Positions 1,063 through 48,785 of a stretch of DNA of 64,000 bases are shown one piece after another. Where the stretch lies: assembly GCA_018052475.1 (NCBI GenBank), contig JAGPNG010000008.1:11885-75884 (forward strand), given 5' to 3'. Source of the DNA: Candidatus Fermentithermobacillaceae bacterium. GTDB taxonomy: Bacteria; Bacillota; Sulfobacillia; Fermentithermobacillales; Fermentithermobacillaceae. Made by a program: the position numbers and the translations under genes. The first letter of the stretch is position 1. Every line of letters begins with the position of its first letter. The notes under the pieces were generated by a model, which was given only the letters and a program-made list of their open reading frames with translations, had not been told where the DNA came from and made no database searches.

Positions 1063-1089
1063 TCCGGGTTCTCTAAAGGAGGGCTTGCA

Positions 1090-2094: not shown

Positions 2095-2135
2095 GAGGCT
2101 CAAGGCTATCTGCAGTACGGAGAGAGGGATAAGAC

Positions 2136-2441
2136 ATGCGAGTAATATCCCATCCTGTGCTTGAAGACATGCAAGGCGCTAAATGGGTAGAGATTACCGT
2201 AGACGGTAGGAAAATAGTGGCACGGCAAGGGGAGAGCATTGCAGCGGCTCTTATGGCGGAAGGCATAAGGACAATGAGGTATACACCAGTAAGGTCCGAG
2301 CCCAGAGGAGTATTTTGCGGGATCGGACAATGTAGTGACTGCATGGTCACGGTAAATGGCGTTCCAAATGTGAGAGCATGTATTACCCCGGTTGAAGAGG
2401 GCATGGTCGTGGAAACCGGAACAGTTCAGCATCGAGGTTAG
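2136..2441 (+). CDS. Small (2Fe-2S)-binding subunit, like the gamma subunit of opine oxidase or D-hydroxyproline dehydrogenase.
   Basis: 101 aa; Cys cluster FCGIGQCSDCMVTVNG...RAC; immediately upstream of the FAD/NAD oxidoreductase gene. Confidence 0.7.
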   Translation: MRVISHPVLEDMQGAKWVEITVDGRKIVARQGESIAAALMAEGIRTMRYTPVRSEPRGVFCGIGQCSDCMVTVNGVPNVRACITPVEEGMVVETGTVQHRG

Positions 2442-2445
2442 AGAG

Positions 2446-3588
2446 ATGTCTCATCAGGTCGATGTTTGTGTGGTAGGTTCGGGCCCCTCTGGTCTTGGGG
2501 CCGCAATAGAATGCGCGAGATACGGTCTTAGCGTCATCGTTTTGGATTCCAATCTTCAAGCAGGCGGTCAGTTGAACAAGCAAATCCACAAGTTTTTCGG
2601 TTCTAGCGCCCACCGAGCGGGTACAAGGGGAATTCTGATAGCCCAAGAGCTTTTGGAGGAAGCCCTAAGTCTCGGCGTTAGGGTATGGCTTGACTCTGAA
2701 GTATACTCCGTTTCAAACGATCTATCCCTTCAGATACTAAAAGGCGTAAGAGCTTCTAAAGTAACGGCTGACCGCGCCGCGCATCCTTGTACCCTTATGT
2801 GCAGATACCTGGTCATAGCAACGGGAGCTTCAGAAAAACCGGCACTGTTCCCCGGTTGGACTCTTCCGGGGGTTATGAGCGCGGGGGCTGTTCAAACCAT
2901 GATGAACTTGGAAAGGGTTTTGCCGGGAAGGAATTTCATCGTTGTAGGCGCAGGGAATGTTGGGCTCATAGTTGCCTATCAACTTCTGCAGGCAGGAGCC
3001 CAAGTGTCATGTGTTGTTGAATCTAATAAAGAGATAGGTGGATATGCCGTACATGCTGCCAAGATAAGGCGGTGTGGAGTTCCTATTCTGACTGAAACTA
3101 CTGTAATACGAGTTTTGGGCATAGACCAGGTAGAAGCAGCAGAAATAGGTAGGATCGGTGCCGATTGGAATGGGAAAGACTCCGCTAGGAAGCGGATTTG
3201 TGTAGACACGGTGTGTATGGCAGTAGGCCTCAAACCGTATGCCAGGCTTGCTTCTTTAGCAGGGTGTGCGTTTGGATATTACCCTCAACTCGGTGGTTGG
3301 GTTCCCCTGCACGACGAGTACATGATGACTACGAAACAAAACGTGTACGTGGTCGGTGATGCTTCCGGCATTGAAGAAGGAGGAATAGCTGAGGATGAAG
3401 GTCGTCTAGCTGGTCTTGATATAGCTCTTAGGGAAAACCCTTGGGAAAGAAACCTGGATTTGAATCGTAACAGGGTGAGAGAAAGACTATGGGAGAATAG
3501 ATCCGGAAAATATATGAGTGATAAAGGTGATGCTAAACGAGATGTAATATCCCGCTGGCACAATCTGTCCGATCCATCGGGACCATAA
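2446..3588 (+). CDS. FAD/NAD(P)-binding pyridine-nucleotide-disulfide-type oxidoreductase, like the alpha subunit of heteromeric proline / D-hydroxyproline dehydrogenase or opine oxidase subunit A.
   Basis: Two Rossmann GxGxxG motifs (VCVVGSGPSGLGAA and FIVVGAGNVGL) and VVGDASG. The start was moved to the ATG at 2446, just after the upstream stop at 2441; the ORF track begins at 2392 inside the previous gene. Confidence 0.75.
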   Translation: MSHQVDVCVVGSGPSGLGAAIECARYGLSVIVLDSNLQAGGQLNKQIHKFFGSSAHRAGTRGILIAQELLEEALSLGVRVWLDSEVYSVSNDLSLQILKGVRASKVTADRAAHPCTLMCRYLVIATGASEKPALFPGWTLPGVMSAGAVQTMMNLERVLPGRNFIVVGAGNVGLIVAYQLLQAGAQVSCVVESNKEIGGYAVHAAKIRRCGVPILTETTVIRVLGIDQVEAAEIGRIGADWNGKDSARKRICVDTVCMAVGLKPYARLASLAGCAFGYYPQLGGWVPLHDEYMMTTKQNVYVVGDASGIEEGGIAEDEGRLAGLDIALRENPWERNLDLNRNRVRERLWENRSGKYMSDKGDAKRDVISRWHNLSDPSGP

Positions 3589-3618
3589 GACGCATTTTGA
3601 CGTTCCCAGTCTGCCATA

Positions 3619-3930
3619 TTGCCCTTTTCTCGTGGGAAAGGAGAGTTGTTTCATTTGGATGATGACGTGGTTGTCTGCAGATGTGAAGAAGTGACCGTTC
3701 GGGATGTGAAAAAGGCAATAGCCGAAGGGGCATTTGATATCGCCGGAGTAAAGCGACGCACAAGAGCGGGAATGGGGATTTGCCAGGGTAGAACATGTGA
3801 AGACCTGATCAGGCAGATTTTGGTTTCTGAACTTGGGATAGAACCCGAAGCGGTATTACCGGATAAGGTCAGGACACCTATATCCCCTGTTACTTTCGAG
3901 ATCCTATCCGGTGGTGGAGCCCATGAATGA
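3619..3930 (+). CDS. BFD-like [2Fe-2S]-binding domain protein.
   Basis: VVCRCEEVTVRDVKKAI ... GICQGRTCEDLI, the classic BFD-like CxC...CxxC pattern. The exact start is uncertain because no good SD precedes the 3619 ATG. Confidence 0.65.
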   Translation: MPFSRGKGELFHLDDDVVVCRCEEVTVRDVKKAIAEGAFDIAGVKRRTRAGMGICQGRTCEDLIRQILVSELGIEPEAVLPDKVRTPISPVTFEILSGGGAHE

Positions 3931-5092
3931 GGTTTGCGACGTCGTGGTAGTCGGCTGTGGCGTGATAGGTGCAGCCATAACATATTACTTATCGGCAGCC
4001 GGTATGAAAGTGATCGCCGTGGACAGGTCGGACATAGCTTCCGGTACGTCATCGGCTTGTGACGGGAATATACTTGCAATAGACAAAGAGCCTGGTTTTG
4101 ACTCAAGAATGGCTCTTGAAAGCCAAAAACTCTTCGAGACGCTTGAAAAGGAGCTTTCGTTTGATTTGGAATACAGGCATCTTGGGAGCACTTTGGCTGT
4201 AGAGGACGAATATCAAGTAGAGCAAGCTGCCGAATGGGAAAAAGCCATGAGGGAGTCAGGGCTTGATGTCAGATTGATAGGCCCGTCAGACGTGCACTCA
4301 TACGAACCTATGATAGCCGAGGATGTCCTTGGACTTTTGGAGTGTGCTTCTGACGCTTCACTAAACCCCATAGCGTTGGTCCGCGCTTATGTACTTGCAG
4401 CTAGAGGAAATGGGGCGGTCATAGAGGAGTTTACCGGGGTTAAGGACATCTTGGTTACCGCTGACGGTCGTGTTGCGGGAGTTGAGACTGATTTGGGCAA
4501 AATACTTGCGCCATTCGTGGTATTGGCCGCAGGGGTCTGGACTCCCGAGATAGCTAAAAGGTGCGGCATTTGCATTCCGATCCTGCCTCGAAAGGGCCAT
4601 ATTATTGTATCCGAAAGGACTTTTAGAGTTGGCAGTAGGAAGATCCAGGAATTTGGGTATCTGATGGCAAAATTCGGAACAAGAGATAGACGCGGCGTAG
4701 ATAGTGAAACAGAGCAATACGGCATAGCCATGGTATTTGAACCTACCCCCCACGGCAACTTCCTTATAGGCTCAAGTAGAGAGTTTGTGGGATTTGATAC
4801 TTCCTGTAACACGAAAGTTGTAGCGCTCATGGCAAAACGAGCCATGAGGTTCTTCCCTTGCATCAAGGACATTAGAGTTATAAGGACATATGCAGGGCTC
4901 AGGCCCTACACACCTGATCATCGCCCTATAATCTCCGAGGTAGACGGCATTTCAGGTTTGTATGTTGCTTCGGGTCACGAAGGCGATGGGATAGGGTTAG
5001 CTCCTATCACAGGTGTTTTGGTGCGTGACATGGTTCTTAAGCGACCTTCGCAGATACCCCTAGAACCCCTTAGTTTGAGAAGATTTGCATAG
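3923..5092 (+). CDS. FAD-dependent oxidoreductase of the DAO family, like the beta subunit of D-proline / D-hydroxyproline dehydrogenase or sarcosine oxidase beta.
   Basis: N-terminal dinucleotide-binding motif CDVVVVGCGVIGAAITYYLSAAGMKVIAVDR, and a C-terminal SGHEGDGIGLAP motif typical of the DAO family. Overlaps the upstream gene's end, suggesting translational coupling. Confidence 0.8.
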   Translation: MNEVCDVVVVGCGVIGAAITYYLSAAGMKVIAVDRSDIASGTSSACDGNILAIDKEPGFDSRMALESQKLFETLEKELSFDLEYRHLGSTLAVEDEYQVEQAAEWEKAMRESGLDVRLIGPSDVHSYEPMIAEDVLGLLECASDASLNPIALVRAYVLAARGNGAVIEEFTGVKDILVTADGRVAGVETDLGKILAPFVVLAAGVWTPEIAKRCGICIPILPRKGHIIVSERTFRVGSRKIQEFGYLMAKFGTRDRRGVDSETEQYGIAMVFEPTPHGNFLIGSSREFVGFDTSCNTKVVALMAKRAMRFFPCIKDIRVIRTYAGLRPYTPDHRPIISEVDGISGLYVASGHEGDGIGLAPITGVLVRDMVLKRPSQIPLEPLSLRRFA

Positions 5093-5259
5093 AAACAAAT
5101 CTCGTAGAACTTCTGAGATAACATTTCACAAAAGCAGGAGTTTTCTTGGCTATGGAGAACCTCCTTAATATGTATAGACATCAGACAATCTGATCGGAAT
5201 CGGAATGGGTGTACTTCTGCCCTCGTTGCGCATTAGCTCAATCAAGGAGGCGGTTGGAA

Positions 5260-6918
5260 ATGGGTGAGAGAGATAGCGTTAAGCTGGTCCAATTGTACAG
5301 AGATTTTGACGAAAGATGTGCTACTTGTCTTGATCAGATAAAAAGCACCAGAAGATACGAAAAGCAGTTGTATGTACCTTCTGAGGAAACTCGAAAAAAG
5401 GCCGAGAGGGCCCTACAAGAACTCTTGGCTGAGGCCGGCGAACTAGAGGCGCCTGATGTTGTTTTTGAGATACTCAAGAACCATTTTGACGAGTTCATTC
5501 GCGAGCAAATGTCCCATCTCAGGAGAATGTTTGCCGGACCCAGTTCTTTTATCAGCGGAATATCGAACACAATTGACTACTACTCAAGGAAAGACTCACG
5601 TAGCAGTTCAGAAAGAGCAGAGATCCTTCTAAGTAGGTTGAACAACATAGACGCGGTTTGGTCGGGCGTAAGAAAACTTCTTCCCTCTACTGCGATAGAT
5701 GAAGTATCACAGATGTCAGATGTATGTGACACTCTTTCCACAGTAGCAAAAAAGATGGTCTCTAGGGTTCCCGAACTATATAGCGGTATGTCAGAAAAAC
5801 TCGTTCAGGAAGTACAGTCAGAGTTAGAACGGGTATCTGAACGGGCAAAGGGCTGGGAACAAGAGGTAAAGGAATTTGTGGAATCAAGAAAGAGTGGTTC
5901 CGGACACAAGGAAGTAGTATCGGAGAGGGATCCCATTGAAGAATACAGGTACCTACTCTTAAATCAGTTTGGAGTGGACCTAGACCAGATCTTATCCTGG
6001 CATGAGGAAGAAATCGAAAAGACCAGATCTGAGATGTTCGAAATCGCTAATCGTATTAACGTTCCGGGGTTGCCAAAGGTAGATTCAGTAGAAGATGTGG
6101 TAGATATATTGAACAAGTTCGAGGGCCCGTGTGACGAGCCCGACGAGATGTTCGTTAGGATGAGAGATTATCTAGACAGGGCTCAAAAGGCTACGCGCGA
6201 GTTTGTGAAGCTCCCGGAAGAAAGTGTCGTGGTGGTTCCTACGCCGGATACCCTCGTCAAGCACTATCCTTGGGGAGGATACGGAGGAGGCTGTCCCAGG
6301 AGAAGGCCTCTTCAGGGCGAAACATTCCTTAACGTTGAGAACTACAAAGCTGTAACCGACGGCTGGATCAGGATGAATTCGGTACATGAATGCTATCCAG
6401 GGCATCACGTTCAGTGGGTACGATCGGTGCTAGATCCTCTTCCTGAGACCGTTAAGGTCGGTGCTCGCGGGGTTCCGACTTTGGAGGGCAGCGCACATAG
6501 GTCGGAACGTCTCATGGAATTCATCTATCCAGACGATCCATTCTATCCGCTATTTGTGGCCTATAGGCGTCACCATACCTCGGTGCGGATAAAAGCAGAT
6601 TTGTGGCTCAGGTACTTTGGGCGTCCCTTTGACGATGTGGTCGATCTATATGTCCAAGAGCTTGGCTTTGAAAGGAAAGTTGCATCGGGTCAAGTGTTGG
6701 CTCAAAACCTCATGAAGGGCTATTTCACCTGTTATTACTATGGAATGAAACGTTTGACAGACCTTGAGCGGCAACTGGGATACAACCAGAAAGATTTCAC
6801 CGAACTGATTTTTTCCTTGCCAAGGGTTAGCCTCAAGACTATGGAAGAATTCTTGAAACTAAGCGAGCCTGATAAGTCTAGATTGCTAACTGAGTTTCCT
6901 AGCAAGGTAACACTCTAG
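5260..6918 (+). CDS. Uncharacterised conserved protein, paralog A; a putative metal-dependent hydrolase.
   Basis: 552 aa from the ATG at 5260, which has a strong AGGAGG SD 12 nt upstream. Conserved blocks shared with the 8289-9968 paralog: YPWGGYGGGCPRRRPL, HECYPGHHVQWVR, DDPFYPL, YRRHHTSVRIKADL, GYFTCYYYGMK. Confidence 0.8.
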   Translation: MGERDSVKLVQLYRDFDERCATCLDQIKSTRRYEKQLYVPSEETRKKAERALQELLAEAGELEAPDVVFEILKNHFDEFIREQMSHLRRMFAGPSSFISGISNTIDYYSRKDSRSSSERAEILLSRLNNIDAVWSGVRKLLPSTAIDEVSQMSDVCDTLSTVAKKMVSRVPELYSGMSEKLVQEVQSELERVSERAKGWEQEVKEFVESRKSGSGHKEVVSERDPIEEYRYLLLNQFGVDLDQILSWHEEEIEKTRSEMFEIANRINVPGLPKVDSVEDVVDILNKFEGPCDEPDEMFVRMRDYLDRAQKATREFVKLPEESVVVVPTPDTLVKHYPWGGYGGGCPRRRPLQGETFLNVENYKAVTDGWIRMNSVHECYPGHHVQWVRSVLDPLPETVKVGARGVPTLEGSAHRSERLMEFIYPDDPFYPLFVAYRRHHTSVRIKADLWLRYFGRPFDDVVDLYVQELGFERKVASGQVLAQNLMKGYFTCYYYGMKRLTDLERQLGYNQKDFTELIFSLPRVSLKTMEEFLKLSEPDKSRLLTEFPSKVTL

Positions 6919-7017
6919 GGAACGAAGGTGAATTCTCTTTCAAAGAAGAATGTATTTGATGGTACCTGATGGATGTTGGCCAAGTTCTTGCTCAAAGAAA
7001 GGAGACTGAACGTAACT

Positions 7018-8211
7018 ATGCGCAAGTTTCGTGTTTCTCCGGAGGAATTCAAGAGGCGGACTGACGTTGTACTCGAAGAAATGAAGGGTAAGGATATTAA
7101 GGGCTTTGTGTTTTGGAGTTCGGTCAGTATTTTTTATCTTTCCGGGTTTGCGTTTATACCGACAGAAAGACCGCTTTGCCTCATCTTGTCGCAAGATGGC
7201 AAAAAAACGATTTTTGGGCCCAGATTGGAGCTTGAGCATGCCCGAGAATGCCCTGAGGTAGCGGATATAAAGACATATCCCGACTATCCGGGTAAAACGC
7301 ATCCAATGAAGCAGTTGGGAAAACTTTTAGAAGAGATGGGTTTAGGTACGGGTAAAATCGGAAGCGACGGAGGCGGATATGCATCGTCTTCGGGCTATCG
7401 GGGACCCAAGCTGTCTGAAGTCTTGCCTTCGGCGGAGATACTCATAGATCCCTATCTTATAGAGAATATGAGAATGGTTAAGTCCAAAGAGGAGATCTTA
7501 CTCATCAAGGAAAGCTGCAGATGGGGGAATCTTGCTCACAAGTTCCTACAGCTTTACTCAAAACCCGGAGCCTACGAGAACGAGATTTCGGCCAGAGCTT
7601 CCCTAGAAGCCACGCTAGCCATGATTAACACCTTGGGGCCGCTGTATGATCCGACCACCATAGGGCGCGGCGGCGCTAGCGCCGGTTTTAGAGGGCAAAT
7701 TGGGCCTAACTCGGCTTTGCCTCACGCCATGTCGATAAATGCGGTCCTTAAGCCCGGGGATGTTTTGGTTACAGGTGCGGGTGCGGGAGTTTTTGGATAT
7801 AACAGTGAGCTGGAAAGGACTATGTTTGTAGGTGAACCCGACGATGAGAAGAAAAAGTACTTTGACTTGATGATGCAGGCACAACAAGTGGCTTTTGATA
7901 ACATAAAGCCGGGCCGCAAGTGCTCTGAGGTTGATGCGGCTGTGTCCGCTTTCTATGAGAAGCACAGTCTTTGGGACTACTGGAGACATCACACGGGCCA
8001 CGCTCTTGGCTTACTTGGTCATGAGGCACCTTTCTTCGATGTAGCAGATGACACCGTAATCAAGCCCGGAATGGTGTTTAGCGTTGAACCGGGGCTTTAC
8101 GTGATGGGTCTTGGAGGCTTTAGGCATTCCGACACTATATTGGTTACCGAAACCGGTATCGAAATGCTCACCTACTATCCGAGAGATTTGGAGTCTCTTA
8201 TCTGCGGATGA
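7018..8211 (+). CDS. Xaa-Pro aminopeptidase/dipeptidase, peptidase family M24B.
   Basis: M24 pita-bread signature HHTGHALGLLGHEAPF plus metal ligands (D..D..H..E..E pattern). The start was set at the ATG at 7018 (MRKFRVSPEEF), which has an AAGGAG SD. Confidence 0.85.
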   Translation: MRKFRVSPEEFKRRTDVVLEEMKGKDIKGFVFWSSVSIFYLSGFAFIPTERPLCLILSQDGKKTIFGPRLELEHARECPEVADIKTYPDYPGKTHPMKQLGKLLEEMGLGTGKIGSDGGGYASSSGYRGPKLSEVLPSAEILIDPYLIENMRMVKSKEEILLIKESCRWGNLAHKFLQLYSKPGAYENEISARASLEATLAMINTLGPLYDPTTIGRGGASAGFRGQIGPNSALPHAMSINAVLKPGDVLVTGAGAGVFGYNSELERTMFVGEPDDEKKKYFDLMMQAQQVAFDNIKPGRKCSEVDAAVSAFYEKHSLWDYWRHHTGHALGLLGHEAPFFDVADDTVIKPGMVFSVEPGLYVMGLGGFRHSDTILVTETGIEMLTYYPRDLESLICG

Positions 8212-8235
8212 TTCAGTAACTGTGGCAAGAACGAA

Positions 8236-8278
8236 GGAGCAGGGGCTATCAGACAGAAAAGGTCCCTGCTCCTTTTTT
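8236..8278. terminator. Bidirectional intrinsic terminator between convergent genes.
   Basis: GGAGCAGGGG (8236-8245) / CCCTGCTCC (8264-8272) stem followed by TTTTTT (8273-8278). It lies between the 3' ends of the M24 peptidase (+) and paralog B (-). Confidence 0.7.
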
Positions 8279-8288
8279 GGAATGTGGA

Positions 8289-9968
8289 TTACCTATATTC
8301 AAGTTTGCTTGGAAAACCAGTCAGCAGTCTTGTTTTGTCTTGGTCGCTTAGAGTCAGAAACGCCTCGAAGTTGGATAGGCTCACATATGGCAAAGAGAAT
8401 AAGTATTCGGTGAAGGTTTTCCTATCATATCCATATCGTAGCTCCATATCCTCGAGTTTTTTCATCCCATAGTAATAACAGGTGAAGTAACCGATTCTGT
8501 TTTGAGGAAGTTGAGATACGGCTTGCCCTTTGGCGGTTTGATAATCGAAACCTAACTCGTCCATATATAACTTTATGGCATCTTCTAGTGGGCGGCCGAA
8601 ATACTGCATGTAAAGGTCGGCTTTGATCCTGACGGAAGTATGGTGACGCCTATAGGTCACCGCGAGCGGATAGAAAGGATCGTCATCATATATGTACTCC
8701 ATGAGTCTTTCTGTTCGATGACACATGCCTTCTTCCATTGGCACTCTCTTTGCGCCTAACTTCATGGTTTCGGGAAGCGGATCAAGGGTTGTGCGGACCC
8801 ACTGTACATGGTGGCCGGGGTAACATTCGTGCACTGCGTTTATCTTAATCCACCCGTCTGTGACTGCACGGTAGTTTGTGTCATTTAGAAACACTTCGCC
8901 GAGAAGAGGCCTTCTTCTTGGGCACCCGCCGCCATAGCCTCCCCAAGGGTACGTCTCCCTGCATTGTTCATACACAGGGACAACCCTGCAATCTTCTTCA
9001 GGCATGTTAACCCAGTCCCGACACGCTTTCTTGGCTCTGGCTAAATACTTCTTCATCCGGTCGAACATCTCAGTAGGGGAGGCAGCCGGTCCGGCGTACT
9101 TATTCATGATTTCAACTGCGTCAAGGGGCCCTTTTACCACAACGCCCGGAAGATCAAGGTGTGCGGCCGTTTCCACAAACTCCGCCCGGGTCTTTTCCAC
9201 TTCTTCCTCGTACCAATTTAACAATTCGTCTAGACTGACCCCTAGTTCTGTCTCCAAAACAGATCTATACCGTTCGGGACCGGCAGTAGCTATTTTGCCC
9301 TTGTCTTCTTTGTCGGGACGGTTTTCCAAGAGACTTTCTATCTCTTGCGCCCATCTGGAGCTTTTGGCTGCAAAGGTATCCAGCGCGTAAAGGATCTTTT
9401 CCATATCGCCTGCCGATAGACCTTGATACTCTTCTTTAGCCTTAGACTTTTCGATGCTTGCGACTCGAGCCAATAGCGAAGAAGCCGAGCTTGCTTCAAC
9501 AAGTTGAGCGCGCGGACTCGTTTCAAGGATATCTCGAAGCGCAGACCATAACTCGTCCAATAGATCGATTCTTGCCAGCAAGATCTCTAATCGGATTTGT
9601 GGTGGTCTTGAATCTTGACTTCCGAGGAACGTTAGCGAGTGAGTAAGCGACGATATGAACGCAGACGGATACTCGTACATGCCATCTAGATTAGATTTCT
9701 GCCCCTCTATGAAGTCTATTATGTGGCTCCTGAGAAGAGCAAAAACAGGGTCGGGCGCGGCACAGAGGTATGCTTCATGCAATATGTTATCCAATTCCTT
9801 CTCCTCGCGCTGTTTGGCTTCTTTCGTTGGAATGAACAGGTTCATTTCATAGTCGCGGTTATTGCGCAGTCTATCAGATTGAAGGCCGCACCGGTAATCC
9901 AGGTCAATATAGCTTTGGCGAAGATTAGACATGTCCTGGGAACTGTTCTTTCGGTTCAAATGCATCAT
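8289..9968 (-). CDS. Uncharacterised conserved protein, paralog B of 5260-6918.
   Basis: 559 aa; it aligns along its whole length with paralog A, including ETYPWGGYGGGCPRRRPL, AVHECYPGHHVQWVRT, YRRHHTSVRIKADL and GYFTCYYYGMKKL. The start could be one of the adjacent ATGs at 9968 or 9965, downstream of a GAGGTGG SD. Confidence 0.8.
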   Translation of the reverse strand: MMHLNRKNSSQDMSNLRQSYIDLDYRCGLQSDRLRNNRDYEMNLFIPTKEAKQREEKELDNILHEAYLCAAPDPVFALLRSHIIDFIEGQKSNLDGMYEYPSAFISSLTHSLTFLGSQDSRPPQIRLEILLARIDLLDELWSALRDILETSPRAQLVEASSASSLLARVASIEKSKAKEEYQGLSAGDMEKILYALDTFAAKSSRWAQEIESLLENRPDKEDKGKIATAGPERYRSVLETELGVSLDELLNWYEEEVEKTRAEFVETAAHLDLPGVVVKGPLDAVEIMNKYAGPAASPTEMFDRMKKYLARAKKACRDWVNMPEEDCRVVPVYEQCRETYPWGGYGGGCPRRRPLLGEVFLNDTNYRAVTDGWIKINAVHECYPGHHVQWVRTTLDPLPETMKLGAKRVPMEEGMCHRTERLMEYIYDDDPFYPLAVTYRRHHTSVRIKADLYMQYFGRPLEDAIKLYMDELGFDYQTAKGQAVSQLPQNRIGYFTCYYYGMKKLEDMELRYGYDRKTFTEYLFSLPYVSLSNFEAFLTLSDQDKTRLLTGFPSKLEYR

Positions 9969-10148
9969 CCCACCTCAGATTAGTTTTTCTGTCTCTTGCG
10001 ATGAAGTCTTTTGTATGACGAATATGAGAACTTTGTCATATCATCAGACATCAATCTACGAATTCTACATTGAGATTCGGAACCCTCTTTTGAGGAGTAA
10101 ACTCTTGCAAAGTTATATGTTTTATCGCTAGATGGTAGAATAGAGGAG

Positions 10149-11708
10149 ATGACGAATCCGGGGGTGAGACTAGCGTTGGATACAGTCGTTTACAAGGTAG
10201 ACCCTTTGCACCCTGATGAAGAGATAATCTCCAAATGCGCAGAGGTGATTTTGCGGGGGGGCCTGGTAGCGTTTCCCACTGAGACAGTCTATGGGATCGG
10301 CGGAAACGGTCTCGATCCGGTTGCTGTAGCAAAGATATTCGAGGCTAAAGGGAGGCCCCCAGATAACCCGCTGATACTGCACGTTTCGCGGCCCGAAAGC
10401 GTTGAGGCGTTAGTCGAGGAGATTCCGCCGGAAGCGGTCAGATTAATGGAGATGTTCTGGCCCGGTCCTCTTACGCTTATTCTTCCTAAATCTCATCTGG
10501 TGCCTTCAATAGTTACCGGAGGTTTGCCTACTGTGGCAGTCAGGATGCCGGATCATCCTGTAGCGCAGAAACTCATTGATGCTTGCGGCGTACCATTGGC
10601 AGCTCCCTCTGCGAATATATCGGGAAGACCCAGCGCTACGTCTGCTGAAGACGTGTTGGCGGATTTAAACGGCAAAGTGGATATCATTCTTGATGCAGGA
10701 CCTACTGAAATTGGCATAGAGTCGACGTTGGTGGATCTTTCTGGCGATGTTCCCAGAGTGAACAGACCCGGTGGATTGAACCTACAGAGCATTAGGGAGG
10801 TTCTTGAGACTGCCGATGTCGCTCCTCAGCCAAAATATAGACATTATGTTCCTGACAGTGACCTTTATCTTGTCACCGGTGATTTGATGCAACAGAGAAG
10901 AAAGTCGATATTCCATGCGATAAGGTTCATTGGTTCAGGTAAGAAAGTAGTCATTTTGGCGTCTGACGAAAATGCGCCGTTTTATGTTCCGTTCCAGAAG
11001 GTATTTGGCGATGACCGTATGCAGGTGATACCGCTGGGTTCCAGATGCGATCTTTCACCTGTAGCCGCAAAACTGTATTCAAGCCTTAGGCGCGCTTCAA
11101 ATGAATTGGGCGCAGATGTAATCTTATCGGAAACATTTCCCGAAGAAGGCATCGGTTTTGCCATTTCCAACAGATTAGAAATGGCAAGCGAAGGCAGGGT
11201 AGTCCCTTGGTTCGACTCGGCGTCAGACTATCAGCCCGCGCCACTTGCGATACTCATGGTCTGCTCCGGAAATACATGCAGAAGCCCAATGGCGGAAGGG
11301 CTTCTTAGGCGTCTGTGGAAAGATATAGGTGAGCCATATCCCATTCATGTTGCATCTGCCGGTGTATCGGCTATACCGGGGCTTCCGGCGTCGAGAGAGG
11401 CGATAGAAGTTATGGCCAAAAGAGGGGTAGACCTTTCATACCATAGGTCTAAGGCTTTAGAAATTGAAGATGTAAAAAGGGCAGATCTGGTTATAACGAT
11501 GACAAAGGCGCACAAAGCGGTCTTGGTATTGAGTTACCCTGAATTCTCTCACAAAGTGTTTACCCTATCGGAGATGATTTCTGATAGGGATTTAAGCGAT
11601 GTCCCTGATCCTTTTGGACAAGATTTGGAGATGTATGAGCGTACGGCAGATCTTCTCGAACAAAGCCTCCTGGTATTGGCAAAGAGGTTGGCGGGGTTGG
11701 ACGTTTGA
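10149..11708 (+). CDS. Fusion protein: L-threonylcarbamoyladenylate synthase (TsaC/Sua5/YwlC type) fused to a low-molecular-weight protein (Tyr/Arg) phosphatase (YwlE-like).
   Basis: N-terminal YrdC domain (GGLVAFPTETVYGIGGN, ILHVS) and a Sua5-type middle domain. The C-terminal approximately 160 aa begin ILMVCSGNTCRSPMAEGL, which is the CX4CR(S/T) P-loop of LMW-PTP / arginine phosphatase. A single uninterrupted 519-aa ORF. Confidence 0.8.
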   Translation: MTNPGVRLALDTVVYKVDPLHPDEEIISKCAEVILRGGLVAFPTETVYGIGGNGLDPVAVAKIFEAKGRPPDNPLILHVSRPESVEALVEEIPPEAVRLMEMFWPGPLTLILPKSHLVPSIVTGGLPTVAVRMPDHPVAQKLIDACGVPLAAPSANISGRPSATSAEDVLADLNGKVDIILDAGPTEIGIESTLVDLSGDVPRVNRPGGLNLQSIREVLETADVAPQPKYRHYVPDSDLYLVTGDLMQQRRKSIFHAIRFIGSGKKVVILASDENAPFYVPFQKVFGDDRMQVIPLGSRCDLSPVAAKLYSSLRRASNELGADVILSETFPEEGIGFAISNRLEMASEGRVVPWFDSASDYQPAPLAILMVCSGNTCRSPMAEGLLRRLWKDIGEPYPIHVASAGVSAIPGLPASREAIEVMAKRGVDLSYHRSKALEIEDVKRADLVITMTKAHKAVLVLSYPEFSHKVFTLSEMISDRDLSDVPDPFGQDLEMYERTADLLEQSLLVLAKRLAGLDV

Positions 11709-11727
11709 GAACAAAGGGTGTGAGGGT

Positions 11728-12882
11728 ATGAGACAGTTAAATGAGAGAGATCTCGTTGCTGCGGTTTGGGGCGGGGCGGTTTTGGGGGGCGGCGGAGGTG
11801 GTTCGCCTGAAGCAGGTTACCGCCTTGGGAAAAAAGGTTTGGAGATTGGGCGCGTGCTTTTGGCCGACGTAGACGAACTAGATGCTGATGACCTAGTCGT
11901 AACAGCGGGTTTGGTAGGTTCTCCAAAGAAAGGCGGCCTTGGACCTGCAGCCGAATCTTACGTAGATGCCTTTTCTTTTTTCCGACATGTCACAGGGGCA
12001 AGGATTTCTGCTATAAACTCTAACGAGTGCGGAGGTCTTGCAACTGTGAACGGGTGGCTTCAAGCTGCAGGTCTGGGCGTTCCGGTTCTGGATGCCCCGT
12101 GCAATGGGCGCGCTCATCCTACTGCCCTTATGGGAGCTATGGGATTGCACAAAGATCCGTCATATGTATCGAAGCAGGTGGCAATAGGAGATGGATCTCG
12201 GATGTATGTAGAGGGTCCGCTTGGGGATGCGTCTTCAATGGTTAGAGAGTTTTCCAAAAAAGACGGTCTTGTGGCAGTAGCCAGAAATCCTGTTAGCATC
12301 GGCTATGTGAAGCGAAATGCAGCATGTGGCGGAATATCAAAATGCATTGACCTTGGCTATGCAATGGCAGCTCATGTTCAAGAAGAACTAGGTTTTGATC
12401 CGCTTAAGCCTCAATACGTTGGAGGGTCACGAGAGTACCCTTTGGCCGGGTATTTTGCGTCGAGCATGGCTGCGATGGTGCTCGGTGGGGTGATTACCCT
12501 GATGGGCCAGGTAAAGGCGGTAGACATATCTACAAGAGGCGGTTTTGACGTAGGAGAGGTTGAGGTGGCATCTTTCGAGACTAAAAACGGCAACGGAACT
12601 ACTGCGCATTTAACTTTCATGAACGAGTATCTATCATATGGCCTAAAGGGGCATGTCATATTCAGTTTCCCTGACTTGGTTGCAGTGATGGATATGCATA
12701 CGGGGTGGCCTATATCCTCTGCGGACATAAAAGAGGGTATGGAGGTCATCGTTTTCGGTGTCCCATCAGATAATTTGATACTTGGGGCAGGCATGTATGA
12801 TAAAGAACTTTACAAGCCTCTTGAGGAGGCGACAGCCTTAACTTTTAACCTTCCTGTTTCAAAGAGGAGGTCAGACACATGA
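11728..12882 (+). CDS. Conserved hypothetical protein of unknown function, with a Gly-rich motif; possibly a DUF917 / S-Me-THD-like fold.
   Basis: 384 aa from the ATG at 11728, which has an SD GAGGGT; MRQLNERDLVAAVWGGAVLGGGGGGSPEAGY... I do not recognise a characterised family. The stop overlaps the rpiB start (ATGA). Confidence 0.7.
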   Translation: MRQLNERDLVAAVWGGAVLGGGGGGSPEAGYRLGKKGLEIGRVLLADVDELDADDLVVTAGLVGSPKKGGLGPAAESYVDAFSFFRHVTGARISAINSNECGGLATVNGWLQAAGLGVPVLDAPCNGRAHPTALMGAMGLHKDPSYVSKQVAIGDGSRMYVEGPLGDASSMVREFSKKDGLVAVARNPVSIGYVKRNAACGGISKCIDLGYAMAAHVQEELGFDPLKPQYVGGSREYPLAGYFASSMAAMVLGGVITLMGQVKAVDISTRGGFDVGEVEVASFETKNGNGTTAHLTFMNEYLSYGLKGHVIFSFPDLVAVMDMHTGWPISSADIKEGMEVIVFGVPSDNLILGAGMYDKELYKPLEEATALTFNLPVSKRRSDT

Positions 12883-13322
12883 AAATCGCGTTGGGAAGTG
12901 ACCATGCCGGTTACGCTCTCAAAAGAAAGATCAAGGAATTTGCAGAAGATTTGGGCCATGAAATAGTTGACTTGGGGCCCTATGATGAAGAATCAGTCGA
13001 TTACCCTGACTACGCAGCGAAAGTTGCACGAGCCGTAAGGGATGGTGAATTTGACCGCGGTATTTTAGTCTGTGGTACCGGGCTGGGAATGGCCATTGCG
13101 GCTAACAAGGTCAAGGGGATACGGGCTGTTACATGCGGTGACACGTTTTCGGCTAGGGCATCTAGAGAACACAACGATGCAAATGTTCTTTGCCTTGGCG
13201 CCAGAGTAATCGGCGAAGGTTTGGCGATGGATATCGTCGCTACGTGGCTCGAATCTTGCTTTGCAGGCGGGCGACACAAGAGGCGTGTTGATAAAATTAT
13301 CGAACTGGAAGAGGTAATGTAA
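12879..13322 (+). CDS. rpiB: Ribose-5-phosphate isomerase B (RpiB/LacAB family).
   Basis: MKIALGSDHAGYALKRKI... VCGTGLGMAIAANK, the canonical RpiB motifs; 147 aa. Confidence 0.9.
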   Translation: MKIALGSDHAGYALKRKIKEFAEDLGHEIVDLGPYDEESVDYPDYAAKVARAVRDGEFDRGILVCGTGLGMAIAANKVKGIRAVTCGDTFSARASREHNDANVLCLGARVIGEGLAMDIVATWLESCFAGGRHKRRVDKIIELEEVM

Positions 13323-13323
13323 G

Positions 13324-14001
13324 GTGAGCGAGAATTTCAAAGATTGGCCCGATGGTAAAGTATACGCAAAAGATGCAGAAGAAAGGCTTACTTACCAAGA
13401 AGCTTTTCTGGAGGAGAACATCAGTCTAGAAAGTATCCATGATGATACGAAAAAACTTGTAGGCGAGCTTTTGGATTCGGCCAACCTAAAACCCGGCAAT
13501 ATCTTGGTTTTGGGTTGCTCGACGAGTGAAGTTCAGGGCAAGAGAATTGGCTCTTACGGCAATACCGATGTCGCTAAGGCGATCTTAGAAGCAGTGCGCG
13601 CTTTATTATCCGAATCGGGCGTGTTCTTAGCGGTCCAGTGTTGTGAGCATCTTAACAGGTCTTTGGTAGTTGAAAGAAAGGTACTCGACAAGTACGGTCT
13701 TACTGAAGTCACCGTGCTTCCTGTGCCCCACGCGGGAGGAGCCGCGGCTTTTACCGCGATGCGGTTGTTTGAAGATCCCGTTGTAGTCGAATCCATCCAG
13801 GCACATGCCGGGGTTGATATTGGAGATACCTTTATAGGTATGCATCTAAAGCCTGTGGTTGTTCCTGTTCGGTTGTCAGTTAAGTCGATTGGTTTTGCTC
13901 ACGTTACTGCGGCGAGGACGAGACCCAAGCTTGTAGGTGGCAAGCGCGCTGTGTACGATCGAGAAGAATTTGAAAAGTGGGTTAAGGGGGAGCGCCGGTA
14001 G
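13324..14001 (+). CDS. ywlG: UPF0340 / DUF436 family protein (YwlG-like).
   Basis: Position directly after rpiB, as in B. subtilis ywlF-ywlG. It has the conserved [10 protein letters not shown] and VQCCEHLNR blocks typical of the DUF436 family. Confidence 0.65.
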
Positions 14002-14060
14002 TAATAGATAGGCTCTCATATCGTGCGGTGATGCCGGATAAGGAACTTGGAGGAATGTTT

Positions 14061-14546
14061 ATGAGTCAAAGTAAAGACACCCGCAGATCAAACAGACCCG
14101 GGTGGGATGAGTACTTTATGCAGGTAGCAGATGTTGTATCTAGGCGTTCTACCTGCATACGGCGAAACGTAGGAGCGGTCATAGTGAAAGACAAGCGGAT
14201 CCTTGCGACAGGGTATAACGGTGCTCCAAGCGGTCTGGCGCACTGTGCTGATGTGGGGTGTCTTCGCGAGGAATTGGGAATTCCATCAGGTGAGAGGCAT
14301 GAGATTTGCCGAGGGCTTCACGCTGAACAAAATGCTATTATCCAGGCAGCGAAGTATGGGATAGCTATTGAGGGCTCAACTATTTACTGCACAGTTGAAC
14401 CGTGCAGTTTGTGCACAAAGATGCTCATAAACTCTAAAATAGTGCGAATCGTCTACAAGGAACCGTATCCTGATGATCTTGCGCGGAGGCTTCTGGCTGA
14501 GTCGAAAGTGACTGTAGAACATTTCGTGGTGCCCGATATCAATTGA
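14061..14546 (+). CDS. dCMP (deoxycytidylate) deaminase, ComEB-like.
   Basis: WDEYFM N-terminus, Zn-binding HAEQNAI and PCSLC motifs. The start was set at the ATG at 14061, 7 nt after a GGAGG SD. Confidence 0.8.
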
Positions 14547-17435: not shown

Positions 17436-19418
17436 ATGGCTGTTGCCAAAATGCGGAAAGTAACGATATTTGCTTACGAAGAGATTGGTGAATCCATCTT
17501 TGAGACTCTAAGAGACTTGGAGATCCTTCATGTTATTAAGAGCGAATCCTATGGTCATAGGGAGCGCGGAGATGCAGAGGGACCGGAGGTAGATGAGGCC
17601 AAGTACAATGAGACACTTTCCCAATTATCGGCTATTAAGTCTTACTTTGAACGTTACACGAGTATCAAGAAGAGCTTCATAGATATGTTTACAGGCGCAA
17701 AGCCTCAGATGTCATATGAGGACTTTCAGAAGGTCGTCGCCAGATATGATGTGGCAGAGACTTTCGACAAGGTACAGTCCCACGAAAAGCGTTTAAGAGA
17801 GATAGACAAGGAAATCGAGGAACTCAGCCAGAGAACCCAGGTCCTTGAGCCTTGGGTTGACTTCGATATCCCGATTTCCCATATGGGTCCAACAAAAACC
17901 TGTGACATGCAGTTGGCAATAGTCCCTACTCGGTCTTTGAGCGAGGCAGTGAAGGAAATTCCTTTGGAGCATGTGCACTTTAAAGTTATATGGCAGGAGC
18001 ACGGAAATTCGGGCGTGTGGCTGGTTGGTCTTTCGGACGAGGAGCCTTCGCTTAGCGCAGTGGTGTCTGCCTTCGGAGGCGTAATCGTAAACTTAGGCAG
18101 AGAAGTGGCAGGGTATTCCGAAACCGGACTGGTTAGCGATGCGCTCGCGAATATCGAAAAGAAAAAGGAAGAACTTTTGAACGAACGCAATGCGATTCTA
18201 GTTGAAGATTCTGAGGTGGCTCAGAATCTCATGGATATACTTGCGCTAATAGACTATTACCTTGACAAGAAGAATCTGTTCGAGATCCACCAAGAAGTAG
18301 CCAAGACTAGATTCACTCTGGTCATAGAGGGCTATGCTAGGGCAAAAGAGATCGATAAGCTCAGAAACGGTCTCGGCATGTACAAAGATATTGAGGTCAT
18401 AGATGAGGAACCGGGGCAAGACGAGGACATTCCAGTGCTCCTTGAGAATAACGCTTTGGTGAGGCCATTTGAGTTCGTTACGAATATCTATGGGTATCCT
18501 CAATACAATGAAATGGATCCTACTCCTTTCTTGGCCCCGTTCTTCTGGGTGTTCTTTGCTATGTGTCTAGGCGACGCTATCTACGGGATCATTCTTTCTA
18601 TATTTTCCATCGTGTTTCTTAGGACGCAAAACCTTGAGGATGATAAGCTCATCAAGCTGCTGGGCTATTGCGGAATATCTACTGTGTTTGCGGGCGCACT
18701 CATGGGCAGTTGGCTAGGGGATTTGCCGAAGACCTTTTTGGCAGGAACTGCTTTTGAGAAATTCACGTCAAGCATCGCTATTTTGGATCCGGTTAATGAT
18801 CCTATCACGCTTCTTATCGTATCTTTGGGGCTAGGCATTCTTCATATCTGGGTTGGCATAATTGTGAAAATGATTGGCACCATAAGGCAAGGGGCGGTCG
18901 TCGATGGGATACTGAGCCACGGTTCGTGGGTTGTGTTCTTGCCGGGTCTCATCCTTTGGGCAGTTTCTCAGATGGGGATCATACAAAGCAGCGTTCCACT
19001 CTACATCATGATTGCAGGTGCAGTAGGGATAATGTGGTCCGGTGCTAGGAATCAGAAGAATATCCTCATGAAGCCGATATCGGCAATTGGCGGCTTTTAT
19101 TCAATGCTCTCTTATTTCTCAGATACGCTATCTTATGCCAGAATTCTTGCGTTAGGATTGGCCAGCGCCATAATAGGGGTCGTGGTGAACATGGTTTCAG
19201 CACTGGTTGTTGATATGGTACCTGGAGTCGGATGGGTCTTTGTCCCTGTGATATTGATCGTAGGACATCTTTTCAACCTTTTGATAAACGCGTTGGGTAG
19301 TTTTATTCACTCGGGCCGTTTGCAATATGTTGAGTTTTTCAGTAAGTTTTTCGAAGGAGGTGGAACTCCCTTTAGGCCTCTGAAACGGGTAAGGAAAAAC
19401 GTGTGGGTCGTAGAATAG
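17436..19418 (+). CDS. V/A-type ATPase subunit I (membrane a-subunit).
   Basis: 660 aa with a hydrophilic N-terminal half and a C-terminal polytopic membrane domain; operon position before the proteolipid. Confidence 0.8.
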   Translation: MAVAKMRKVTIFAYEEIGESIFETLRDLEILHVIKSESYGHRERGDAEGPEVDEAKYNETLSQLSAIKSYFERYTSIKKSFIDMFTGAKPQMSYEDFQKVVARYDVAETFDKVQSHEKRLREIDKEIEELSQRTQVLEPWVDFDIPISHMGPTKTCDMQLAIVPTRSLSEAVKEIPLEHVHFKVIWQEHGNSGVWLVGLSDEEPSLSAVVSAFGGVIVNLGREVAGYSETGLVSDALANIEKKKEELLNERNAILVEDSEVAQNLMDILALIDYYLDKKNLFEIHQEVAKTRFTLVIEGYARAKEIDKLRNGLGMYKDIEVIDEEPGQDEDIPVLLENNALVRPFEFVTNIYGYPQYNEMDPTPFLAPFFWVFFAMCLGDAIYGIILSIFSIVFLRTQNLEDDKLIKLLGYCGISTVFAGALMGSWLGDLPKTFLAGTAFEKFTSSIAILDPVNDPITLLIVSLGLGILHIWVGIIVKMIGTIRQGAVVDGILSHGSWVVFLPGLILWAVSQMGIIQSSVPLYIMIAGAVGIMWSGARNQKNILMKPISAIGGFYSMLSYFSDTLSYARILALGLASAIIGVVVNMVSALVVDMVPGVGWVFVPVILIVGHLFNLLINALGSFIHSGRLQYVEFFSKFFEGGGTPFRPLKRVRKNVWVVE

Positions 19419-19477
19419 TTGCTTTTGACTGAAAAGAGCAAGTAAAAAGAGCAAGGCGATACTGGGAGGGGTTTAGT

Positions 19478-20038
19478 GTGTTTGAAGGAATGATAGGAAA
19501 GTGGGTTTTGATAGGTTGTGTATTGCTTTTTGGAATGCTCATTGTGGGTTTGATTTTTGGACCGCTTCTTGGCGGCAACGTTTTGGCTCTCATGGGCGCA
19601 GGGTTAGCAGTGTTTCTCGGAGGGATCGGTTCTATTGTGGCAGTAGGAGCTACGGGAGAAAAAGCTGCTGGGATGACTGCCGAAAACCCCGAAAATTTCG
19701 GACGTCTTTTGCCACTGCAGGCTCTTCCGGGAACTCAGGGCATCTACGGTTTCTTGGTAGGCTTCCTTGCTTTGGTCAAAATAGGTGCGTTTGGCGGAGT
19801 TATGGATCTTGACCTCGCGCAGGGCTGGCAGGTTTTCTTCGCGTGCGTACCGGTTGCCGTCACTTGCTTGGTGTCAGCTTTGTACCAGGGGAAGGTTTGT
19901 CTGGCTGGTATGGATATCGTGGCAAAGAAGCCTGAAGAATCAGGAAAGTCCCTTATTCTTCCGGCTATGGTTGAAACCTATGCTGTTTTGGGACTCTTGG
20001 CTTCAGTCCTGATGATAATGTTTGCAGTCAAAATCTAG
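19478..20038 (+). CDS. V/A-type ATPase proteolipid subunit K (c-ring).
   Basis: Duplicated two-hairpin proteolipid with Gly/Ala-rich TM helices and the conserved carboxylate in the last helix (AMVETYAVLGL). The start may be downstream of 19478. Confidence 0.75.
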   Translation: MFEGMIGKWVLIGCVLLFGMLIVGLIFGPLLGGNVLALMGAGLAVFLGGIGSIVAVGATGEKAAGMTAENPENFGRLLPLQALPGTQGIYGFLVGFLALVKIGAFGGVMDLDLAQGWQVFFACVPVAVTCLVSALYQGKVCLAGMDIVAKKPEESGKSLILPAMVETYAVLGLLASVLMIMFAVKI

Positions 20039-20050
20039 GGGGAAAATCAT

Positions 20051-22063: not shown

Positions 22064-22069
22064 TGCGGC

Positions 22070-23839: not shown

Positions 23840-23884
23840 GCCAATAACAGGCCGGAGTGAAAGTTTTAGCATGGGGGAATCTAA

Positions 23885-25279: not shown

Positions 25280-25293
25280 GGGGGTGACAGACC

Positions 25294-47671: not shown

Positions 47672-48785
47672 ATGTACGAAGAAGTAATAAGTGAATTGGA
47701 GTCTTTAAGAGAAAGACTGGCAAATATCGGGAGGTCTCTTTGACCCTGTTAAGTTATCCATGGAGTTGGCGGATCTAAATGCCAAAATGCAAGACCCTTC
47801 AGTGTGGGAAGATCGTAGGCGAGCGCAATCAATCGGCAGACGAATAAGCCATATCGAAAACAAACTAAACACATTCAACGATCTCAAGACCCAGGTAGAA
47901 GACAGCATTTCCATAGCTGTTTTGGCCGAAGAAGAAGGCGACATATCGCTTCTAGAAGATCTGAAGCAAACGGCGCAGGAATTGTCTGAAAAGATCCACG
48001 ACCTAGAATTTGAAACCTTGTTTTCTGGCCCGTATGATTCGAGAGATGCCATAGTTACCCTGCATGCCGGAGCAGGCGGTACAGAGGCGATGGATTGGGT
48101 TGAGATGCTCTACAGAATGTACTCTAGATGGGTTGAGCGTAAGGGATTCGAACTGGAGACTCTTGATATGTTACCTGGTGAGGAAGCCGGACTGAAAAGC
48201 GTGAGCTTTTCTGTTAGGGGCGACCACGCATATGGTTTTTTGCGCCCCGAAAAGGGCGTGCACAGGCTGGTAAGGATCTCTCCTTTCGATTCAAATCAGA
48301 GGAGGCACACTTCGTTTGCATCTGTGGACGTGTTGCCCGAGATTGAGGCCGAAGAAGAAGTAGACATCGACCCAGATGAGATCAAGATAGACACATATAG
48401 GTCCTCAGGCGCAGGTGGCCAGCACGTTAACAAGACTGATTCCGCGGTTAGGATCACGCATATTCCTACAGGCATTGTCGTTACATGCCAAAACGAGCGT
48501 TCTCAGCACTCTAATAAGCTCGTGGCAATGAGGGTCTTAAAAGCCAAACTTTTGGCCCTCAAAGAGGAAGAAAGACTAAAAGAGATTGAAAACCTTAGGG
48601 GTCCGCAAAAAGAGATTACATGGGGAAGTCAGATTAGGTCATATGTCTTTCAGCCGTACACGCTGGTTAAAGACCACCGCACAGGCTTGGAGATAACCAA
48701 CGTGGAACGTGTTATGGATGGCGATATAGACGACTTCATATATGCCAAACTGCGGCAAGATGCCGAACGGGCGGCAGACGGATAA
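47672..48785 (+). CDS. prfB: Peptide chain release factor 2, made by a programmed +1 ribosomal frameshift: join(47672..47740, 47742..48785).
   Basis: Frame-0 ORF MYEEVISELESLRERLANIGRSL ends at the in-frame UGA at 47741-47743 within CTT TGA C. This is preceded by the internal SD-like GGGAGG. The +1 frame continues DPVKLSMELADLNAK..., with the RF2 motifs SPF and GGQHVNKTDSAVR. Confidence 0.9.

Follow-up and report, generated by a model that had tools for sequence, protein, structure and literature searches.

A Sua5-type threonylcarbamoyl-AMP synthase fused to a YwlE-type phosphatase in uncultured Bacillota

Can a tRNA-modification enzyme and a protein phosphatase that are separate in Bacillus subtilis be one protein elsewhere, and does their union say anything about function? 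The question is raised by a 64-kb stretch of DNA from a Candidatus Fermentithermobacillaceae bacterium (contig JAGPNG010000008.1; the whole 64,000-nucleotide stretch is hereafter the window), in which a single open reading frame (ORF) joins a Sua5-type threonylcarbamoyl-AMP (TC-AMP) synthase to a domain with the fold of the protein tyrosine phosphatases of low molecular weight (LMW-PTPs), resembling the protein arginine phosphatase YwlE. N6-threonylcarbamoyladenosine at tRNA position 37 (t6A37), the product of the pathway whose first step is the synthesis of TC-AMP, is among the few universal tRNA modifications, and its cellular regulation is poorly understood. In Gram-positive bacteria arginine phosphorylation by McsB marks proteins for degradation by ClpCP, and YwlE reverses this modification. 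A preliminary description of the window, made from its sequence, offered two accounts of the ORF, a genuine gene fusion or an assembly indel that had removed a stop codon. The comparisons presented here reveal a genuine fusion, one that is common among uncultured Bacillota, and we consider it likely that the gene encodes a bifunctional protein combining a Sua5/TsaC2-type TC-AMP synthase with a YwlE-type phosphatase.

An uninterrupted reading frame and its conservation

The ORF contains no internal stop codons and three Pfam domains share its frame. These are Sua5_yciO_yrdC (PF01300) at residues 32-208 (E-value 4e-61, 205.9 bits against a cut-off of 25.1), Sua5_C (PF03481) at residues 217-346 (E-value 1.5e-19, 71.3 bits against 22.9) and LMWPc (PF01451) at residues 368-507 (E-value 1e-31, 110.6 bits against 23.2). 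The protein as a whole also matches the NCBIfam model TIGR00057 (L-threonylcarbamoyladenylate synthase) with 208.5 bits, the cut-off being 123.2. The YrdC and Sua5 domains thus run without interruption into a C-terminal LMW-PTP domain, as the preliminary description had stated, and the P-loop that it cited, CSGNTCRSPMAEG, is found at residues 372-384 (nt 11262-11300). The AlphaFold2 (AF2) model of the fusion protein has a mean predicted local distance difference test score (pLDDT) of 91.6 and a predicted template modelling score (pTM) of 0.87; no solved structure covering both halves was found among the PDB sequence and Foldseek matches.

The same architecture was recovered from independent sources. 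In a Logan assembly (L081) the ORF again has 519 codons and differs from that of the window at 10 of 1,557 nt, and a 73-kb ENA metagenome contig (L082) encodes a 513-residue fused protein, 81% identical to that of the window, in identical synteny. The fusion is also present in the complete genome of Ca. Fermentithermobacillus carboniphilus (L001), whose protein is 57% identical and which is the best match among the genome-contig matches listed. At the protein level all three Pfam domains occur in 118 of the 120 best clusters at 90% identity (99% down to 37% identity), the 118 fused clusters being drawn from NCBI, JGI, ENA and Logan, while about 26 fused proteins are among the best 150 representatives of 50%-identity clusters. 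Within the best 120 clusters every match that is at least 48% identical to the window protein is fused, which indicates that the fusion is fixed in the lineage of the window. Outside that lineage it is found in Clostridia, for example in Ructibacterium, a member of the Oscillospiraceae (L009). The search for fused orthologues in related genomes that had been proposed therefore returned many, one of them in a complete genome.

The nature of the sequence changes is informative as well. Between the window and L082 the proportion of synonymous sites that differ (pS) is ∼0.6, so that these sites are near saturation, and the frame is intact. The ratio of non-synonymous to synonymous substitution rates for this pair is 0.05 in the YrdC domain, 0.17 in the inter-domain linker and 0.09 in LMWPc, values that point to purifying selection acting on both halves and on the linker between them. 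An assembly or sequencing error could in principle mimic such a fusion by one base, as there are loci in some Clostridia in which sua5 and ywlE lie in the same frame with a single TAA or TGA stop between them (L003, 9054-9056; L006, 9018-9020; L012, 7892-7894; L041, 8997-8999). That the organism really has two separate genes and that an error erased the stop of sua5 is, however, exceedingly improbable, because the same open frame is seen in L081, in L082 (without a stop in spite of the pS of 0.6), in L001 and in the 118 protein clusters, and because the junction has lost the Shine-Dalgarno (SD) sequence and ATG that unfused relatives carry there. These observations exclude the assembly indel of the preliminary description and uphold its alternative, a genuine fusion, through independent assemblies, a complete genome and purifying selection across the junction.

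The boundary between the two halves was placed by domain analysis at residues 347-367, where the alignment has its lowest conservation and its most gaps. This linker is of equal length in the window, L081 and L082, and is six residues shorter in L001. Unfused relatives carry a stop codon, an SD sequence and an ATG at the position of the linker; in the window gene no internal SD or usable start was found before the phosphatase domain. At the other end of the gene, the protein of 519 residues first proposed requires adjustment, for although the 519-codon ORF is present, translation probably begins further downstream. ATG 10149 directly abuts its GGAG, and it is not conserved, since L082 has ATA there. 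TTG 10176, by comparison, sits 8 nt past the SD-like GGGGGTGAG and coincides with Leu10, the position at which the homologue consensus begins. Both GTG 10164 and TTG 10176 are kept in L082 and L001, the relatives being annotated from GTG, and the AF2 pLDDT is below 50 for residues 1-9. The true start is thus probably TTG 10176 or GTG 10164 and not ATG 10149, giving a protein of 510-514 residues. This correction leaves the fusion itself unaffected.

Active sites of the two halves

In the Sua5 half the ATP-binding tetrad, following the KxR/SxN definition (PMC6004061), is present as K67-x-R69 (10347-10355) and S154-x-N156 (10608-10616), and these motifs are kept in 118-119 of the 119 aligned fused sequences (query included). 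The lid residues H232-Y233 (10842-10847) and P235 are likewise present and are nearly invariant among fused homologues. The C-terminal motif of SUA5 (MNRLxKAS) reads S340-N-R-L-E-M-A-S347 in the window protein, with R342, L343 and A346 again nearly invariant.

The phosphatase half displays a P-loop of the form C[TSA]GNTCRS, which is found in all 118 fused homologues, every one of them with Thr at position 5, while the Asp and Pro of the general-acid loop are present in 118 of the 119 aligned fused sequences. The closest solved relative of the domain is the Thermoanaerobacter tengcongensis LMW-PTP (4EGS, 8e-36), followed by YwlE chains from B. subtilis and Geobacillus (1e-26 to 9e-25). Matches are weaker to Vibrio vulnificus 7dhd (1e-15), Escherichia coli Wzb (∼5e-14 to 9e-14), Staphylococcus aureus PtpA (1e-14 or weaker), YfkJ (6.5e-12) and ArsC (1e-8). 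In Foldseek comparisons the AF2 phosphatase domain superposes on YwlE with template modelling (TM) scores of 0.92-0.94 and root-mean-square deviations (rmsd) of 1.1-1.2 Å. Mutational work on YwlE, on PtpB of S. aureus and on Drosophila DARP has shown that LMW-PTPs are switched to phosphoarginine, away from phosphotyrosine, by a Thr at position 5 of the P-loop (PMC8001253, PMC7772506). By these sequence criteria the C-terminal domain is a predicted YwlE-type cysteine phosphatase tuned to phosphoarginine, and the 'YwlE-like' label given to it in the preliminary description is borne out by the position-5 Thr, the Asp-Pro-Phe loop and the best PDB matches. In catalysis C372 would act as the nucleophile, R378 would bind the phosphate, T376 would accept the guanidinium group and D487 would be the general acid.

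It is very unlikely that the domain is instead a phosphotyrosine phosphatase of the Wzb/PtpA type or an arsenate reductase of the ArsC type. Pfam does name it a phosphotyrosine phosphatase, and there are weak NCBIfam matches to both kinds of model. These, however, lie far below their cut-offs, at 66.3 against 243 bits (NF007520) and 70.7 against 247 (NF008486) for the Wzb-type models and 45.1 against 174.3 for the ArsC model TIGR02691. Tyrosine phosphatases have Ile where the window protein has Thr at P-loop position 5, and the best tyrosine-type chain, 7dhd, matches at only 1e-15 compared with 1e-26 to 8e-36 for YwlE-type structures. With regard to ArsC, the domain contains only two cysteines, C372 and C377, and the downstream redox Cys pair of the thioredoxin-coupled (pI258-type) enzymes is missing.

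Two entries encountered among the matches to the phosphatase half may be recorded here. The molecule name of 4EGS in its sequence record is 'Ribose 5-phosphate isomerase RpiB', whereas the entry title describes an LMW-PTP; the adjacent rpiB gene is the probable source of the misnomer. A protein of 1,679 residues (P0124) has an unusual architecture in which PEP-utilizers and PPDK_N domains are followed by five tandem LMWPc domains.

Origin of the fusion and its possible meaning

The fusion belongs to a conserved gene pair. Among 80 genome loci taken from the genome-contig matches listed, 33 have either a fused long ORF or, at the sua5 locus, an LMW-PTP gene with a canonical P-loop; in six the two genes are fused, in 15 they are directly adjacent, in nine the phosphatase gene lies further downstream and three are long ORFs lacking the canonical P-loop. 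All but one of the 33 are Bacillota by record title, the exception (L078) being labelled Desulfovibrio sp. Several classes of Bacillota preserve the pairing of sua5 with ywlE, and rpiB usually follows it. In Bacillaceae loci (Gottfriedia, Virgibacillus and others) sua5 and ywlE are 1.7-2.1 kb apart, and in Gottfriedia the gene between them was confirmed as MntP (YwlD). The layout described for B. subtilis, with ywlC, ywlD and ywlE as separate genes, is thus matched by the Bacillaceae. MntP/YwlD lies between the genes in the Bacillaceae loci only, sua5 and ywlE being directly adjacent in the other Bacillota loci examined. The preliminary description was right that the window lacks a ywlD equivalent, as there is no MntP/YwlD gene between or beside the two halves, and outside the Bacillaceae this absence is ordinary.

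The four in-frame loci described above suggest how the fusion could have come about. In these the start of ywlE lies 1-6 codons past the stop of sua5 (ATG in three, apparently GTG in L012), and the spacer codons after that stop hold the SD sequence and the start of ywlE. As sua5 and ywlE are neighbours, and are sometimes in frame with one stop between them, fusion is easy; the fused gene would have arisen from the conserved pair by loss of the sua5 stop and the short spacer. On a neighbour-joining tree of the Sua5 part, which was built without support values from a protein set biased toward fused matches, fused and unfused proteins interleave and at least 17 changes of state are required by Fitch parsimony. 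Fusion or fission has thus probably happened more than once. There are also short fusions of 395-411 residues (P0088, P0093), of TsaC type, in which YrdC is joined directly to LMWPc without a SUA5 domain.

A second group of loci retains the pairing with a decayed phosphatase. In metagenome-assembled genomes of Lachnospiraceae, Ruminococcus, Roseburia and Eubacterium the P-loop of the YwlE-like domain next to Sua5, or fused with it, is degenerate, examples being AENGTCRA, SDSDTCRG, CRENVTIS and CTDNTCLS. Across these loci either Ser, Ala, Gly or Asp stands in place of the nucleophilic Cys, or Ile, Leu or Glu in place of the Arg. Such a domain is fused to Sua5 in L010 (7974-9554) and L016 (4044-5582), where it still scores 56-63 bits with Pfam LMWPc, and is encoded by a gene adjacent to sua5 in L044, L061, L066, L026, L059 and L011; the corresponding proteins are P0260-P0285. 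Judged by their sequences these domains look like a conserved pseudophosphatase kept with Sua5, and the retention of a dead domain beside Sua5 suggests a function independent of catalysis.

With regard to the window protein, both activities are probably retained, since the catalytic residues are kept and both halves evolve under purifying selection. The N-terminal two-thirds would convert threonine, bicarbonate and ATP into TC-AMP, for use by TsaBDE in forming t6A37, and the tethered phosphatase would remove arginine phosphorylation of the McsB type. Its targets would probably include the t6A machinery, as well as other proteins. The t6A transferase TsaD of B. subtilis was shown to carry phosphate on Arg282, to be degraded by ClpCP and to be stabilized by YwlE (Ogura 2020, PMC7546277), in a study that makes no mention of ywlC/TsaC or of its place beside ywlE. 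If TsaD were likewise a target in the window organism, the production of TC-AMP and the protection of its consumer would be expressed 1:1 and kept in close proximity. A preferential protection of the t6A machinery by the phosphatase is nevertheless doubtful; the suggestion draws on the B. subtilis work and on the comparative pattern. We regard as similarly tentative, and on balance unlikely, a model in which the phosphatase is docked on Sua5 as a dedicated guard of t6A synthesis, keeping Sua5 and TsaD free of McsB-type phosphorylation and hence of degradation by ClpCP, and serves, in lineages with a decayed active site, as a partner that binds phospho-groups or has a structural part. The preliminary description held that the fusion would support a functional link between t6A synthesis and protein dephosphorylation. 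Such a link is plausible in view of the work on TsaD and of the retained dead domains, but the fusion of operon neighbours is on its own weak evidence and the link is unproven.

The main rival to coupling, and one that is quite possible, is that the fusion of tightly packed operon neighbours was neutral, both domains being active and the phosphatase acting in trans on phosphoarginine proteins in general, just as free YwlE does, with no special tie to t6A. The intergenic gaps of unfused relatives are tiny, the fused state changes repeatedly on the crude Sua5 tree, the linker varies in both length and sequence, and in Mycoplasma genitalium TsaC is fused to a different neighbour, HemK/PrmC (PMC4615747), all of which speak for such a fusion. 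Neutrality is, however, harder to reconcile with the persistence of the sua5-ywlE pair across several Bacillota classes, with the survival of dead YwlE-like domains next to Sua5, or fused with it, in genomes of the Lachnospiraceae type and with the control of TsaD stability by YwlE in B. subtilis (PMC7546277). The AF2 models offer a weak hint in the same direction. For the window protein and for the Ructibacterium fusion, which is 43% identical to it and has a pTM of 0.77, the pTM values are above what we would expect for a freely tethered third domain and may point to a fixed arrangement of the domains. It is also conceivable, if highly improbable, that the substrate of the phosphatase domain is a small phosphorylated molecule feeding the TC-AMP reaction or cleared from it, much as the acylphosphatase domain of HypF supplies carbamate to a YrdC-like domain. 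HypF pairs an acylphosphatase domain with a YrdC-like one (PMC9654439), and pyrophosphate, a product of Sua5, occupies its active site and may inhibit the enzyme (PMC6004061). Yet TC-AMP synthesis has no known phosphorylated intermediate, both sequence and fold mark the domain as an ordinary orthologue of YwlE, many relatives keep the phosphatase as a separate protein, and some fused versions have lost the nucleophilic Cys or the P-loop Arg.

Several observations weigh against a bifunctional enzyme coupled to t6A synthesis. In the Sua5 half the Pro-Gly-Met (PGM) motif of the lid is not matched, the window protein having P226-Q227-P228, and the lid linker at 10815-10847 (residues 223-233) is unusually short, its hairpin being more than 10 residues shorter than that of Pyrococcus abyssi Sua5. 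The P. abyssi enzyme is inactive when Pro-Gly-Met is mutated to a triple Ala (PMC6004061). The closest relatives of the window protein deviate at the same motif (PPS, PSV), and Gly is kept in 109 of the 119 aligned sequences, with the window sequence part of the alignment. The combination of PQP in place of PGM with a shortened lid suggests that TC-AMP synthesis may work somewhat differently in this protein. Concerning the phosphatase, an McsB-like ORF was sought in the 64-kb window with a reconstructed B. subtilis McsB query and with the CPTNxGT motif, and no match was found, a result that bears on the window and not on the remainder of the genome. The variable linker and the scatter of fused and unfused proteins on the Sua5 tree would also fit near-neutral fusion without coupling.

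No paper discussing a fusion of Sua5/TsaC with an LMW-PTP was found among the open-access full texts searched, which included papers on t6A. The architecture is already in public databases, Pfam domains having been precomputed for more than 100 clusters. NCBI and JGI name the fused proteins only 'threonylcarbamoyl-AMP synthase', and this naming hides the phosphatase half, such that name-based searches would miss the phosphoarginine phosphatase in fusion lineages. The conserved pairing, the repeated fusion and the retained dead phosphatases together provide comparative-genomic support for a link between YwlE and t6A. If the phosphatase does act as a docked guard, the fusions and dead domains would constitute independent genomic evidence for a link that has been reported only genetically in B. 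subtilis. The comparative pattern, that is recurrent fusion with retained pseudophosphatases, is a more interesting lead than the window gene itself, although the latter provides a simple test system, in which one protein carries both predicted activities.

Gene neighbourhood and comparison with known systems

The features of the fusion gene and of the genes that follow it are listed in Table 1. The downstream genes (11728..14001) are probably co-transcribed with the fusion gene. No terminator-like site was found in 9900-14200, and in a promoter scan promoter-like sites were no commoner than in shuffled sequence. The order of fusion gene, S-Me-THD, rpiB and DUF436 is the same in L082 and L001. 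The occurrence of rpiB downstream, as described for B. subtilis, is confirmed, but the gene is not adjacent, for the S-Me-THD/DUF917 gene intervenes; this insertion before rpiB is shared by the window, L082 and L001 and was not seen in the other Bacillota loci examined.

Table 1. Coordinates of the fusion gene, its parts and its downstream neighbours (positions are those of the window)
Feature	Position	Strand	Remarks
Whole fused ORF	10149..11708	+	519 codons and a TGA stop; fusion of a Sua5-type TC-AMP synthase with a YwlE-type LMW phosphatase
Probable true start region	10159..10178	+	SD-like GGGGGTGAG (10159-10167), then TTG 10176; GTG 10164 inside the region
TsaC-like (YrdC) catalytic domain	10242..10772	+	residues 32-208; Pfam
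Lid linker and SUA5 domain	10797..11186	+	residues 217-346; Pfam and motifs
Variable inter-domain linker	11187..11249	+	residues 347-367; lowest conservation, 29% gaps in alignment
LMW-PTP fold domain, YwlE type	11250..11669	+	residues 368-507; Pfam, PDB matches
P-loop C372-S-G-N-T376-C377-R378-S379	11262..11285	+	nucleophile Cys, position-5 Thr, second Cys, Arg
General-acid loop D487-P488-F489	11607..11615	+	aligns with the YwlE DPFG loop
S-Me-THD/DUF917 gene	11728..12882	+	384 residues; between fusion gene and rpiB
rpiB	12879..13322	+	overlaps S-Me-THD gene at ATGA
DUF436/ywlG	13324..14001	+	after rpiB

Upstream of the fusion gene, the region 343-9968 encodes a GntR/FCD regulator, a proline-racemase-family enzyme, two FAD oxidoreductases, two DUF885 proteins and an M24 (creatinase/prolidase-like) peptidase. 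It looks like an island for amino-acid or peptide catabolism, and is conserved in L082. In that contig the order is DUF885, M24 peptidase, DUF885 (on the other strand), fusion gene, S-Me-THD, rpiB, DUF436 and dCMP deaminase, after which come GT4, UDP-GlcNAc 2-epimerase and a V-type ATPase. In the window a V/A-type ATPase operon (subunits I, K/c, E, C, A, B and D) follows the sua5-rpiB-ywlG cluster at 17436-25941; at the corresponding place Bacillus presumably has its F-type atp operon. Past this operon are murA, mreB, flagellar rod and hook-associated genes, fabZ, metK, secA, prfB, uvrB and uvrA. The prfB gene, for release factor RF2 (47673-48785), has the classic programmed +1 frameshift, with a short ORF0 from ATG 47673 and a main ORF at 47760..48785; the frameshift site consists of an internal SD, GGGAGG, followed by CTT TGA C at 47738-47744. 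No tRNA genes were found in the 64-kb window.

When set beside characterized proteins, the N-terminal 350 residues of the window protein have the same TsaC-like plus SUA5 body as the Sua5/TsaC2 enzymes of P. abyssi (6F87), Sulfolobus tokodaii (2EQA/3AJE) and Thermotoga maritima (9D3H), and as B. subtilis YwlC. The Sua5 half matches 6F87 with a phmmer E-value of 1.6e-79, and in Foldseek the AF2 model superposes on the Sua5/TsaC2 crystal structures with a TM score of ∼0.9 and an rmsd of ∼2 Å. The KxR/SxN tetrad, the HY lid motif and the C-terminal NRLxxAS motif are shared with these enzymes. Unlike them, the window protein has an extra C-terminal phosphatase domain of 150 residues, a shorter lid hairpin and PQP in place of PGM. 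The added domain, for its part, shares the LMW-PTP fold with YwlE/PtpB proteins at 40-46% identity (B. subtilis 4KK3, G. stearothermophilus 4PIC and T. tengcongensis 4EGS), together with the CxGNTCRS P-loop and its position-5 Thr, the DPF acid loop and the genomic place, directly after sua5 and before rpiB. Whereas free YwlE is a protein of ∼150 residues, the domain in the window is tethered to Sua5 by a linker of ∼20 residues and is without a translation start of its own. The degenerate Lachnospiraceae-type Sua5 loci (L010, L016, L061, L066 and others) display the same three-domain order or gene adjacency as the window, but in contrast to those domains the window protein keeps a complete active site.

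The TsaC/YrdC module is frequently found linked with neighbours or pathway partners, as in TsaC-HemK (M. genitalium MG259), HypF (acylphosphatase-Zn finger-YrdC-Kae1), TobZ (Kae1-YrdC) and TsaN (TsaD-TsaC-SUA5-TcdA). The window fusion differs from all four in that the partner is a protein phosphatase.

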